A stretch of 64,000 nucleotides of DNA from an uncultured virus (IMG/VR IMGVR_UViG_3300016478_000199) (taxonomy: Duplodnaviria; Heunggongvirae; Uroviricota; Caudoviricetes): IMG/VR virus record IMGVR_UViG_3300016478_000199, one strand, 5' to 3'. Shown here piece after piece: positions 54,385 through 57,726 of this stretch. The notes under the pieces were generated by a model that was not told the origin of the DNA, searched no databases, and worked only from the letters and a program-made list of their open reading frames with translations. Position 1 is the first letter of the stretch. Each line of letters begins with the position of its first letter. The position numbers were made by a program, and so were the translations under genes.

Positions 54385-54633
54385 ATGCTCAACAAGACAC
54401 AGAAACTATTGCGAAAGCCTTGGCCTGAACTCTCCAAGAGAAAGACAAGTGAAGGCATAGAGAAATTCTGTCCGCGCTGCTGCGAATGGTGGCCGCACGA
54501 CGACGAGTTCTTCACCTTTATTCAGTCCAGAGGCCACTATCACAGCCACTGCAACGCCTGCAGAGCAGAGTCCAGCAGGATCAGGCGCAAAAAAAATCAG
54601 ACCGAGGGTAAGCCCCTCATGGAGACAGCGTGA
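54385..54633 (+). CDS. Small zinc-finger protein
   Basis: KFCPRCCEW...FF...SHCNACR; preceded by TTGTAT-N18-TACCAT. Confidence 0.7.
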   Translation: MLNKTQKLLRKPWPELSKRKTSEGIEKFCPRCCEWWPHDDEFFTFIQSRGHYHSHCNACRAESSRIRRKKNQTEGKPLMETA

Positions 54634-55097
54634 AAAAGACCCCACTTTATATCAAGAAGCTGCACACCGACGCAAAGCTGCCTAAGTACGCTACGCCGGG
54701 CGCCGCATGCTTCGATCTGAACGCCATTGTGGAAGGCAACGGCATGATGAACAGCAACGAAAAGCTGGTCACTCCTTACCAGCCTGTTTCGTTCCGTACC
54801 GGCCTGGCGTTCGAAGTGCCAGAAGGCTACGCCATGTTGGTGTTCAGCCGCAGCGGGCACGGCTTCAATAATGGTGTTCGGCTGTCCAACTGCGTCGGCG
54901 TTATCGACAGCGATTACCGTGGCGAAGTGCTCGTGAAGCTCCACTGCGACGCCGAAGGCCAGGGCGTGCTTGTCAAGCACGGCGACCGCATCGCCCAGGC
55001 AGGCTTGGTGAAGATGGAGCAGGTCGAGATGTTTTTGACCGACGAACTGAGCGAGACTCAGCGCGGCGAAGGCGGCTTCGGGCACACTGGCCAGTAG
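54630..55097 (+). CDS. dut: Trimeric dUTPase
   Basis: AACFDL, SRSG, GVIDSDYRGE, GDRIAQ, RGEGGFGHTG (motifs I-V). Confidence 0.97.
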   Translation: MKKTPLYIKKLHTDAKLPKYATPGAACFDLNAIVEGNGMMNSNEKLVTPYQPVSFRTGLAFEVPEGYAMLVFSRSGHGFNNGVRLSNCVGVIDSDYRGEVLVKLHCDAEGQGVLVKHGDRIAQAGLVKMEQVEMFLTDELSETQRGEGGFGHTGQ

Positions 55098-55127
55098 TTG
55101 CATTATTCATTTTCAATGCGTTAGAAT
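55098..55127 (+). promoter_or_regulatory. Sigma70-like promoter of the ncRNA cluster
   Basis: TTGCAT-N18-TAGAAT. Confidence 0.7.
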
Positions 55128-55487
55128 TTGGTTGTACCGCCCATGGCCACCTGGCCAGCGTAAGGGCCGCCGGATGCGGTAACCGGCCTGATCACCTGCT
55201 TTGCGTTGGGAGAACCTGGCGGGCAGGCTGTATCGGAGTGGTGATTGACTCAGCGCACAGCCGGCATTCTGCCGGGACAGTCACCACTACCGATGCAGAG
55301 CGGTGTGGAAAGCAGACACACAGCGCAATGTCGCTCCGAGCGTACCTGAACAACCGGAGGCGTGGTTTTCGCGTGGTGACGCGCGAAGTAAATAAAATCG
55401 GCGGATCAAGCGGCTCCACGACCGCCCGCAGGGAGTAAGGCTTTGACGGCCTAAGAGGATAGGCGGAGTTGCGACCGGCCTCTGCAC

Positions 55488-55784
55488 AAGAATTGCTGTA
55501 ACCCCCCTAACGGGGAAACGTGGCGGACGGGGGTTCGATTCCCCCCAGCTCCACCAAAAGCGCTTTGTGGCAAGCCGACCTCGGTGCACCGGGTAAGCGG
55601 CAAAGCGCTCCTGATGGGGCTGATCAGGATTCGACGCCGCGCGTAGTCGGATGGGGCAGCACGAGAGGCGACCGACGTAATCGGCGCAAAAGCGATAAAT
55701 GCCAATGACGAAAGTTACGGCCTGCGTCTTGTAGCCTAACCGCTACTGATGCCGGGTTCGCCCCACCTGGGAACAGAACGGGGC
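55488..55784 (+). ncRNA. ssrA: Circularly permuted (two-piece) tmRNA
   Basis: T-arm and CAGCTCC-A-CCA (ends 55556) precede the 5' end GGGGCTG..GGATTCGAC (55616); G3:U70; tag ORF 55701-55739 ANDESYGLRLVA*; outer ends approximate. Confidence 0.9.
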
Positions 55785-56675
55785 TTCGATTTCAGGATTC
55801 CTGTCGTTGGGAACTGACAGCCGGGAAAGACCGGCGAGACACGCTCCCGTGAGTCGTCAGATCGGGCAACAGCCGTAGAGCCTGGTCGCATTAAGTTGCG
55901 GCGGGTCGGCGGGGATAACGCCAAATAAGCGCCCCTGACAACAGCAAATGCTGCAAGCCGGTGGAAGGCCGGCACCATCACCCCGAAAGGGGCTGTATGG
56001 GACAGCGAGCGAAACAGCGTGGGAAAGGGCTGATCAACTGGCGGGGAATGGCTGGTGCCGCATGGGCGAGCAAACCACACCCAAGCCAGATGCCGGGTTC
56101 GACACCACACGCTTGGCGCTGTACGGGGGACGCCCTGGATTCGCTCGCTGTCCCATGCAGGCGAGTAAGGGAAACGGACGATGGGATAGGGGTCGCGCCC
56201 CGGTGTACCTAGAGCCGTGACTGGCGGAAAGCCTGCAGCCGTCGAGCAGCTGGGACTGCGCATACCGCGCAGCAGAGAGCCTGCACTGGTGCCTGATTAG
56301 CTATCAGGCCGCGCCCACTGCGAAAGTGTGGGTTGTATGGGAGAGTGATCTACCGGGTTCGATCCCCGGAGGTCGGGAAACGGGTAACGGGCCGTCCTGG
56401 CCGGAAGTGGCGACGATCACTCCCCCATGCAGGTATCGCGCAAGCTGAAGCGCTACAACTGGCAGGCGGTGCGTAAGTCCGGGGCCAGGGTATGAAAGCC
56501 GCCGGGGATCAGCGCCGGCCCTGCAGCAAATTGCTGGCACCGCCTGTACCAATCATTCTTTGGTCGGAAGCGAAAAAGTCGGGCGGTGCCGGCATCCAAA
56601 TCCCCGACGCCAACCGGGGAACCTCTGGAATGGGGTATCTGCGAAACTTGCCAGAAAGGTGATGGCGACTGGATT

Positions 56676-56704
56676 AAAAGCCCGCTTTTGCGGGCTTTTT
56701 CTTT
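56676..56704 (+). terminator. Intrinsic terminator of the ncRNA cluster
   Basis: AAAAGCCCGC-tttt-GCGGGCTTTTCTTT. Confidence 0.85.
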
Positions 56705-56802
56705 GCTCAACCTGTTGCAATACTCTGTTTTGATCAACTATTATTTGATTAAGCCGCGAAAACGGCTCAACCACCCGACGAATACTTAAGCAGGAAAGGA
56801 AA

Positions 56803-57726
56803 ATGCTCAAACTCATTACCAACGCCATCGTTTACAAGGCCGAACTGCCTTCCGCACAACTGCTCGCCAAGCACCTTGCCGAGTTTCCCTATCACCCTAT
56901 CGCCGATACCGCTTTGTCCCAGGCCAGCTTCGTACCGAACAAGACCAGCAACGAGCTGGTGACCGAGTTCACGGACGGCTTCGCATTTCACCTGCGCTAC
57001 GACGAGAAGATCCTGCCGGCCAGCGTCGTCAAGGCCAAGTCTGACGAGCGCATCGCCAAGTTCGAAGCAGAGCAAGGCGTCCGCCTGAAGAAGGCAGAGC
57101 GCGAAGCGATCCGCGAACAAACTCTGGTCGACCTGGCCAAGACTGCGCTGGTCAAGACCTCGATCATTCCTGCTTTCTACAGCACCAAGGACAACCTGCT
57201 GATCGTGAACACCGGCGGCAAAAAGTTTGCTGACCGGGTAACCTCCTATCTGATCCACGCGGTTGGCAGCGTGAAGACCACCACCATCCACGTCAGCAAT
57301 ATCAAGCACGGCTTGACCACCCGCCTGAAGTCGCACCTGTGGCGCGACGACAATGCCTTCGACGGGTTCGAGGTTGGCGCCAGCGTTGCGCTGAAGAGCG
57401 GCAGCCAAAAAGTCAGCTACAGCCTCGAAGACCTTGAAACGGCTCGCGCAGGCATTCTGGAAGCTATCGACAAGGGCTTCGAAGTTGAGCGCCTGGCCAT
57501 GGTTCACCACGGCGTCGAGTTCAAGCTGACCAGCGACTTTCACTTCAAGGCCGTGCGCTTTGAGGATTCCGAGCGCGAAGACGATGACGAAGTTACCGAC
57601 GCTGTGCACTTCTGGAAGCATGAAGCCGGCGTGCAGGTGCTGCAGTTCTCTGCTGCGCTGAATCAGCTGTGCGATCTGCTGGGCTACAAAGCCGAGGAAG
57701 AGGCCGAGGCCGAGCAGACCGCTTAA
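56803..57726 (+). CDS. rdgC: Recombination-associated protein RdgC
   Basis: N.IVY, FVP, DEKILPASVV, E..QG....K.E...I.E....L...A; promoter TTGCAA-N18-TATTAT at 56715-56744. Confidence 0.85.
   Translation: MLKLITNAIVYKAELPSAQLLAKHLAEFPYHPIADTALSQASFVPNKTSNELVTEFTDGFAFHLRYDEKILPASVVKAKSDERIAKFEAEQGVRLKKAEREAIREQTLVDLAKTALVKTSIIPAFYSTKDNLLIVNTGGKKFADRVTSYLIHAVGSVKTTTIHVSNIKHGLTTRLKSHLWRDDNAFDGFEVGASVALKSGSQKVSYSLEDLETARAGILEAIDKGFEVERLAMVHHGVEFKLTSDFHFKAVRFEDSEREDDDEVTDAVHFWKHEAGVQVLQFSAALNQLCDLLGYKAEEEAEAEQTA

Follow-up and report, generated by a model that had tools for sequence, protein, structure and literature searches.

A phage RNA locus that joins a two-piece tmRNA to two apparently undescribed structured RNAs, element X and a long-stem scaffold

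The locus described here lies in a 64-kb stretch of phage DNA from a metagenome (IMG/VR record IMGVR_UViG_3300016478_000199; the whole stretch is called the window below). A Pfam scan of 75 open reading frames (ORFs) assigned the ORF families of the window, which include an integrase, tail sheath, baseplate, portal and large terminase proteins, helicases of the primase and SNF2 types, SSB and HU. Between a dUTPase gene (54630-55097) and an rdgC gene (56803-57726), both on the + strand, positions 55098-56704 form a non-coding RNA locus that runs from a promoter to a terminator and is read on the + strand, on which all of its features lie. The locus consists of separately folding domains placed end to end: a leader, a hairpin with the long-stem module M1, a structured RNA that we call element X, a two-piece transfer-messenger RNA (tmRNA), a hairpin with module M2, a hairpin with module M3, and the terminator. 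X appears to be an undescribed and widespread structured phage RNA, and the scaffold of the modules appears to be an undescribed relative of the helix that closes X.

The non-coding assignment on the + strand is made because a coding signature is missing, because the terminator and the tmRNA lie on this strand and because this strand folds better (-733.7 kcal/mol for the whole region, against -672.5 on the - strand). A previous inspection of the letters alone, here called the sequence-only reading, had seen no credible ORF between promoter and terminator, and the codon statistics agree with it. The ORFs of the region have a flat GC content by codon position (about 0.6/0.6/0.6), compared with about 0.62/0.40/0.77 in seven real genes, and none of the 85 ORFs that passed the coding filter falls within 55098-56802. 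The largest ORF of the region (175 amino acids, - strand) has no Pfam match. The proposed intrinsic terminator was also borne out, as a stem of 10 pairs, six of them G-C, with a loop of 4 nucleotides (nt) and a T run (56676-56699). For the promoter-like site (55098-55127, TTGCAT-17 nt-TAGAAT, read from the sequence) the outcome is divided: the site is absent from the list given by a consensus scan, but both hexamers (the TTGCA and TTAGAAT boxes) are kept, with a different spacer, in L001, a locus syntenic with this one (RdgC 64% identical).

L001 has the same promoter boxes and leader, followed by an inserted ORF, one CUGCAU-type module, a mini-X and a homologous terminator in front of rdgC, and it lacks a tmRNA. 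The conserved leader element (55134-55194) is near-identical in L001, reading CCGCCCATGGCCA...GCCAGCGTAAGGGCCG.CGGATGCGGTAACCG; the fold of 55134-55225 is not better than that of shuffled sequences (z +0.55). The ORF inserted in L001 (2620-3080, about 150 codons) sits between the conserved leader and the module, and the same leader/ORF junction occurs in a contig of the public run X2 (loose end at 55185). A search for synteny by way of RdgC gave four loci, and none of them has a tmRNA or the exact 5' motif of the modules.

The three long stems are the RNA closing helices of one family, and each of them was found where the sequence-only reading had drawn it: 55228-55247 pairs with 55278-55298 in M1, 55993-56013 with 56140-56160 in M2, and 56333-56350 with 56415-56432 in M3. 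The stems of 20, 21 and 17 pairs share their ends, YUGUAUSGG on the 5' strand and CCSAUGCAG on the 3' strand. M1 (55228-55298) is a 20-bp stem around a small hairpin (minimum free energy, MFE, -42.4 kcal/mol, z -4.09), M2 (55993-56160) a perfect 21-bp stem around about 125 nt (-94.3 kcal/mol, z -5.36), and M3 (56333-56432) a 17-bp stem with an A-C mismatch (-55.6 kcal/mol, z -2.96); each module was compared with 200 shuffles, none of which folds as well. As had been noticed before, a small stable hairpin abuts each stem on its 5' side, at 55195-55227 before M1 (closing pairs CCUGC...GCAGG), at 55981-55992 before M2 (CCCC-GAAA-GGGG, with a GAAA tetraloop) and at 56314-56332 before M3 (CCCACUGC-GAAA-GUGUGGG, with a GAAA loop). 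Three of the four TGTATSGG sites of the window and three of its five CCSATGCAG sites lie within the locus, on the + strand and in matching order. The results support the claim of a single RNA architecture that recurs in the three modules with compensatory changes. The additional claim that G-U wobbles favour the + strand holds for the duplexes of M1 (-33.0 versus -24.9 kcal/mol) and M2 (-41.9 versus -37.2), but not for that of M3 (-28.0 versus -28.5).

The proposal of an undescribed phage RNA system agrees with the Rfam comparison. At the gathering thresholds of Rfam 15 the tmRNA is the only match in the locus, and neither the modules nor X match a family; the loci L026, L064, L073, L124, L126 and L127 likewise gave no match to modules or X. 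With E values up to 10, the locus returned only weak matches driven by the terminator and naRNA4 on the - strand (20.5 bits, gathering threshold 59.5). Concerning M2 we also note a short contig (56091-56162, depth about 895) from a wastewater library labelled RNA-Seq and flagged 'probably DNA', which matches the 3' half of the module up to the stem end. The other contigs over the locus have depths of 3-64; the deep contig may come from an abundant relative and is no evidence of expression.

Stems of the same type were found in at least 12 other phage loci, where the inner sequences are different yet complementary. The motif scans of viral contigs gave mostly chance matches, from which a pairing filter selected the stems considered here; the number of loci is a lower bound. 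Sense-strand modules are present in L026, L064, L073, L135 (with the near-identical L137), L144, L154, L177, L201, L261, L267, L369 and L391. In L124 (Pseudomonas phage PotUPM1), in L146 and in the type represented by phage D14H, the module-type stem carries X as its payload. The outer nine pairs are constant across the family (CUGYAUSGG / CCSAUGCAG), and the inner stems vary but pair, examples being GAGUGAUCUG, GAUGGCGAU, GCUUGAC, GUGGACG and AUGCAUCAGG. An unpaired A/C position lies just inside the stem base in 8 of 15 sense modules. The 5' strand is always abutted by a short hairpin with a covarying stem and a stable loop (CGUAA, CGUGA, GCAA, GAAA or UUCG). At the place equivalent to the hairpin of M1 the relatives have CGUAA, CGUGA, GCAA or UUCG loops, and at that of M2 they have CCCC-GCAA-GG.., as read in the loose ends and joint letters of contigs.

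Other candidates did not enter the family. The stem of L115/L121 (17 pairs) was dropped, as it appears to lie in coding sequence, and the stems of L024, L051, L075, L266 (- strand), L331, L335 and L358, which had passed the energy filter, were not counted, being without an upstream hairpin or family features. The idea that the upstream hairpins resemble CRISPR repeats (RNA anti-CRISPRs) was rejected because the hairpin stems covary freely and no CRISPR-DR family matched in L026. In L026 the Proteo-phage-1 RNA (RF03044, 71.6 bits; 2660-2739, - strand) lies about 70 nt upstream of a pair of module and X, making three small structured RNAs in a row between two small ORFs. Just upstream of the hairpin and module of PotUPM1 there is a 70-nt stretch (L124 2382-2450, L126 1501-1570) that is 95.7% identical in eight records of JBD44-type Pseudomonas phages. 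These eight records have neither module nor X, and the stretch is unannotated there or overlaps a 'hypothetical protein'; it is possibly another small RNA.

Element X (55286-55498) had been overlooked by the sequence-only reading. It is matched by a covariance model, R1, which gives 42.8 bits (E 1.1e-10) and has no other convincing match in the 64 kb. R1 was built from an alignment of 23 compact X copies, which consist of a closing helix P1, a hairpin H1, a variable middle and a hairpin H2, and it matches all 100 X loci searched. Over 93 distinct rows 98.3% of the cells are paired, compared with 76.1% after shuffling and 30-40% with the partner slid, and 341 cells are changed on both sides, compared with 91 after shuffling; such changes occur in 12 of the 18 pairs. 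The X loci were retrieved by their H1 sequence, so that the invariance of H1 is there by construction, but the covariation of P1 and H2 is not. X is a structured phage RNA that spans phyla and has no Rfam family. In the window, P1 pairs UGCAGAG (55294-55300) with CUCUGCA (55480-55486), and H1 (55303-55321), which is defined for the family as GCGUG-GAAAGCAGA-CACGC, has GAAAGCAGA as its loop; the variable middle follows. The window copy is counted as an X on its R1 match with P1 and H1 intact. The stretch 55300-55480 is 72.8% identical to PotUPM1, where it sits inside a module-type stem.

The 24-nt 5' core of X (GCGGYGUGGAAAGCNNACACRCAG) occurs in at least 120 viral contigs and in the genomes of 27 bacterial species from several phyla. 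By record title the genomes include Caulobacteraceae, Rhodobacterales, Pseudomonas, Comamonas, Pusillimonas, Verrucomicrobia, Acidobacteria, Phycisphaerae and Bdellovibrionales. Phages and prophages of Alpha-, Beta- and Gammaproteobacteria have X, and so do assemblies whose labels are Verrucomicrobia, Acidobacteria, Planctomycetes and Bdellovibrionales. The genomes of E. coli gave no match. Among cultured phages 10 of 50,697 records have X, all from Pseudomonas and Ochrobactrum; carriers include the Pseudomonas phages PotUPM1 (host P. otitidis), D14H and Persinger, the P. syringae phages Orimi01 and Orisa01-03, and the Ochrobactrum phage POI1126. The 3' motif AGCCGGAGUAGCGNCCGGCC follows the core at a distance of 25-253 nt in 105 of 139 distinct copies, and the H2 loop of the family is RKUAGCGN. 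Throughout the 93 distinct copies, the 12 nt after P1 (columns 411-421) are mostly C and A, with little G. This tail reads CAUCACC(C/U)CC in one subfamily, and the X-tail sequence CAUCACCCC is identical to the 5' half of the hairpin before M2. A search of the full-text literature for the core returned unrelated papers only.

Modules and X occur together in two arrangements. In PotUPM1, L146 and D14H the long module-type stem is P1 of X itself. In the second arrangement a module lies directly 5' of X, as M1 does in the window and as seen in L026, L135, L144, L154, L177, L201, L261 and L267, and X closes by pairing (G)AUGCAG(W) with (W)CUGCAU(C). Since CUGCAU is the reverse complement of AUGCAG, the 3' motif of a module has two possible partners. 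The downstream CUGCA partner, which would close the element after each module, was missed in the sequence-only reading. In the window, M2 and M3 too are followed, at 70-95 nt, by a CCUGCA complementary to their 3' motif (56231-56237 and 56520-56525). By eye, this outlines a weak element Y2 (56156-56237), in which UGCAGGC (56156-56162) faces GCCUGCA (56231-56237), and an element Y3 (56428-56525), in which UGCAGG faces CCUGCA (56520-56525). Y3 has two X-like hairpins, GCGC-AAGCUGAA-GCGC and GCCGG-GGAUCAGCG-CCGGC. Y2 and Y3 were tried as further copies of X and rejected, as they do not match R1.

The tmRNA (55464-55830) is of the two-piece, circularly permuted kind. It was identified by Rfam and ARAGORN and encodes the tag ANDESYGLRLVA. 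RF04321 matches at 55494-55739 with 131.8 bits (gathering score 47) and RF01850 at 55446-55794 with 127.2 bits (gathering score 84). Both the permuted order and the reading frame of the tag are present, the alignment running ...CUCCACCA, a 46-nt insert and then GGGGCUG. The sequence-only reading had counted a tmRNA among the products of the precursor; the tmRNA is real, but no module stem encloses it. It covers only about 370 of the 1570 nt, and the modules and X lie outside every tmRNA model. ARAGORN found no tRNA anywhere in the window. Phage-borne two-piece tmRNAs are already in print, as excerpts of PMC9004378 state, and the tmRNA part of our locus resembles that of Pseudomonas phages of the PaMx31/SM1 type. 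Pfam assigned none of the 75 ORFs scanned to an SmpB family; the window is not the whole phage, and the phage tmRNA presumably uses the SmpB of the host. In place of the segment between the two pieces (55556-55611) a relative (run X3) has 73 different letters, which is what would be expected of a segment that is cut out and free of constraint. By eye, the base of the module stems (CUGUAU...AUGCAG) resembles the base of the long helix of the tmRNA (UGCUGUAA...GGCAGCA); at the level of the models no similarity between the two was found. Just after the stop codon of the tag (55739-55746) the tmRNA reads CGCUACU, complementary to AGUAGCG, the core of the canonical H2 loop of X. This 7-mer match may be due to chance, and H2 of the window itself has AGUUGCG. 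In Pseudomonas phage SM1 (L125, about 2396-2470) a tRNA-like sequence, judged by eye, directly precedes the two-piece tmRNA within a 1.4-kb unannotated gap, in which no module-type stem was seen.

Several of the payloads, which we call heads, resemble parts of tRNAs. The head of M3 begins with a T-arm-like hairpin (56353-56369, 5 bp, loop UUCGAUC), followed by a hairpin of 8+3 bp and by GGAAGUGGCGAC; ARAGORN calls no tRNA there. The hexamer GTTCRA is present in 7 of 15 sense-strand module sequences, and in the MFE folds of four modules (M3, L135, L267 and L154) it forms the 7-nt loop of a hairpin of 4-5 bp. M2 has the hexamer GTTCGA, but not in a hairpin. The variable regions of X also contain such elements: 8 of 97 distinct regions have a T-arm-like hairpin (0.86 per kb, compared with 0.17 per kb in the flanks), in each case about 20 nt before H2. 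ARAGORN recognises cloverleafs inside the X of L213 and L266 and tRNAs right behind the X of L205, L254 and L263, and all 18 tRNAs near X are on the strand of X.

The heads are interchangeable: related metagenome contigs have whole cassettes inserted, deleted or swapped, with the borders exactly at the conserved helix ends. This was seen in contigs from four public runs aligned to the locus; two of these libraries are labelled RNA-Seq but flagged 'probably DNA', and the contigs show sequence forms, not RNA. One relative skips 55994-56333 (joint 55993->56334), with 9 letters common to both sides, and a skip of 55204-56329 was also seen. In two runs the 5' motif of M2 is joined to the 3' strand of M3 through 50 other letters (joint 56002->56415). 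M1 follows the tmRNA in a relative (joint 55835->55226), with CCCAUCACCCCGCAAGG in between, and one relative has X inside a module stem. The stretch 56434-56500 is skipped in relatives that retain both ends of Y3.

The reading that we favour takes the long stems as processing signals of an RNA operon, as was proposed from the letters alone, and the results support that proposal in part. A single transcript would begin at the conserved promoter and end at the terminator, and this precursor would be cut into separate small RNAs. Cutting would be needed in any case because the tmRNA must become two pieces. With 20, 21 and 17 pairs, or about two helical turns, the stems have the size of RNase III processing stems, and helices of 17-21 bp would be likely entry points for a double-strand-specific host nuclease of this type; on the structure predicted here, processing by RNase III is plausible. 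The helix stubs and the adjacent stable hairpins might then protect the ends of the products. The heads, which are T-loop hairpins and in M3 a T-arm with a closed acceptor-like hairpin, may act as mimics of the tRNA elbow directed toward a host machine that binds tRNA. Host factors would have to do the work, since no RNA enzyme was found among the 75 ORFs of the window scanned with Pfam. Taken as a whole, with the tRNA-mimic heads included, we judge this processing reading about equally likely to be right or wrong.

Several observations weigh against the processing reading. The tmRNA lies between the modules and is flanked by no module stem, so that a rule by which every mature RNA is flanked fails. 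The long stem of PotUPM1 and D14H looks like an integral helix of X, and a stem that closes X in this way could belong to the mature RNA just as well as be a signal that is removed. Most copies of X are closed by only about 8 bp, which is too short for RNase III, and the conserved 9-bp base of the stems exceeds the sequence conservation that RNase III is known to need. The preference for the sense strand fails for M3, where the duplex is about equal on both strands, and is reversed in L201, L261, L124 and L146, whose antisense duplex is stronger; the strand is not fixed by stem energetics alone. The T-arm-like hairpin is absent from the MFE folds of M1, L064, L144, L177, L201 and L261. Moreover, L026, L073, L369 and L391 were partly retrieved with a pattern that contains GGTTCGA, of which L026 and L073 had first been found without it. 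H2 of the window X is degenerate (about 55462-55480; AGUUGCG, with one stem mismatch and non-standard pairs in the R1 alignment), and the closures of Y2 and Y3, without an R1 match, were noticed post hoc. Finally, X has no recurrent neighbouring protein family among 150 ORFs of 75 loci; these ORFs are the longest on each side, and some are probably spurious.

The main competitor is a scheme in which the stems are never cut. The modules and X would then be mature small RNAs built like a bacterial Y RNA, the conserved base with its A-C mismatch would bind a protein, the head would mimic part of a tRNA, and the stem would serve as a handle and protect the ends. We regard this as possible, if rather unlikely. 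It fits the stem being X's own closing helix in PotUPM1 and D14H, the 9-bp base that is kept across phages while the inner stem covaries, and the unpaired A/C just inside the base in about half of the sense modules. According to excerpts of PMC4201824, the bacterial Y RNA YrlA is a long stem of its 5' and 3' ends around a tRNA-like domain in permuted order, with the T-arm first and a closed acceptor-like hairpin next, and RNAs of this type also occur in phages and are cut from a common precursor. M3 shares this layout, its order of 5' strand, T-arm, closed hairpin, short segment and 3' strand being that of YrlA in the same excerpts. They also place the YrlA gene within about 4 kb of the Ro60/Rsr gene on the same strand, but no TROVE/Ro60 match is found among the 75 ORFs of the window. 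The YrlA motif GNCGAANG occurs in no 5' strand of a module, and its sole match in the region (55707) lies inside the tmRNA; GNCGAAN0-1G is not in the module stems, and its N0 form was not seen by eye in the three 5' strands. M3 has no recognisable D-arm, M1 has neither a T-arm nor a following hairpin, and many modules are without a T-arm. The missing Rfam match at E values up to 10 and the missing constant protein neighbour of X point in the same direction. Membership in the Y RNAs fails on the Ro60 gene and on the YrlA motif in the stems, neither of which is found.

Other explanations start from the ends of the stems. The inverted ends might act on the DNA, as short homologies or recombinase sites for cassette exchange, and the RNA stems would be a by-product. 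Differences by whole cassettes with joints at the motifs, including the joint with 9 common letters, would follow directly, as would the two positions of X, which depending on the phage lies within the stem or behind it. Plain homology sites would not need inner stems that keep their pairing through two-sided changes, however, and each of the three modules of the window has at stem position 4 a U-G wobble that favours one strand, on which the T-loop hairpins, the tmRNA and the terminator also lie. No recombinase adjoins the locus, the only integrase being about 40 kb away, and any conserved RNA sequence would yield the same recombination joints. We consider a role on the DNA improbable. The same low credence goes to a folding switch, in which AUGCAG would pair either with the upstream CUGYAU, forming the module, or with the downstream CUGCA, forming X, Y2 or Y3, and in which the toggle may time processing or read-through. 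The fact that CUGCAU and AUGCAG are reverse complements of each other speaks for it, as do the covariation of P1 across the X family and the position of GAUGCAG between an upstream CUGYAUC and a CUGCAUC behind X in L135, L144, L154, L177, L201, L261 and L267; in the window each of the three modules finds such a partner downstream, no more than about 100 nt away or, in the case of X, about 190 nt. Yet the overlap of the two pairings is only about 5 nt, which would let shortened versions of both helices exist side by side; the closures of Y2 and Y3 have just 6-7 bp and are post hoc, and the alternative fold controls neither a terminator nor a ribosome-binding site. The idea of chance inverted repeats, or of a coding region that went unrecognised, is effectively refuted. 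Short ORFs of 18-22 codons do begin at each AUGCAG, and the - strand has ORFs of up to 175 amino acids, but these AUGs are buried in stems with no ribosome-binding site before them, the codon-position signature and a Pfam match of the longest ORF are both missing, and the fold z-scores of the modules and their recurrence in other phages weigh against the idea as well.

Compared with known systems, the tmRNA is a known part of the locus, and the idea of an operon resembles rRNA and tRNA clusters. In rRNA operons RNase III processing stems flank the 16S and 23S rRNA. The likeness lies in helices of about 20 bp formed by sequences that flank structured RNA in a polycistronic non-coding transcript. 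In contrast to the rRNA stems, the base of the phage stems is conserved in sequence across phages, the tmRNA here is unflanked, the stem is in some phages an integral helix of a conserved RNA, and cleavage at our locus is only predicted. The Proteo-phage-1 RNA is, like X, a small-RNA motif of phages, and its position beside a module and X in L026 marks such loci as arrays of small structured RNAs; it is absent from the window, and its sequence and fold are unrelated to the modules or X. A literature search for Proteo-phage-1 as a term found no paper. A catalogue of 2023 lists 10,006 candidate structured RNAs of viruses and phages from intergenic regions of IMG/VR, with tRNA-like candidates included, according to excerpts of PMC10690425. 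The X core was not found in the six supplementary files of that paper that were searched, and X may be among its unnamed candidates.

The separate results can be joined in a more speculative proposal, which we consider tentative and on balance unlikely. X and the long-stem modules may be one undescribed class of phage carrier RNAs that spans phyla. Its members would have a conserved platform, made of the closing helix and two invariant hairpins, and interchangeable heads, which would be T-loop hairpins, whole tRNA-like cloverleafs or, at this locus, the neighbouring tmRNA. These heads would act as decoys for a host machine that binds tRNA, or would hijack it; examples of such a machine are RNase P, the ribosome-rescue system and a defence nuclease that targets tRNA. 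The conserved helix ends would have two roles, as processing points in the RNA and as homologies in the DNA by which phages trade heads.

The non-coding RNAs of phages are poorly charted, and the locus links a known one, the tmRNA, to two seemingly undescribed ones, X and the long-stem scaffold. The scaffold is modular, presents tRNA-like pieces and is shuffled between phages. A conservation of X as wide as this, with no fixed protein neighbour, points to a universal host target, and because cultured carriers exist the question is directly testable. Should that target be a defence system or an enzyme that binds tRNA, these RNAs would represent a new kind of phage counter-measure based on RNA, and they would also provide a natural example of a scaffold for RNA display.

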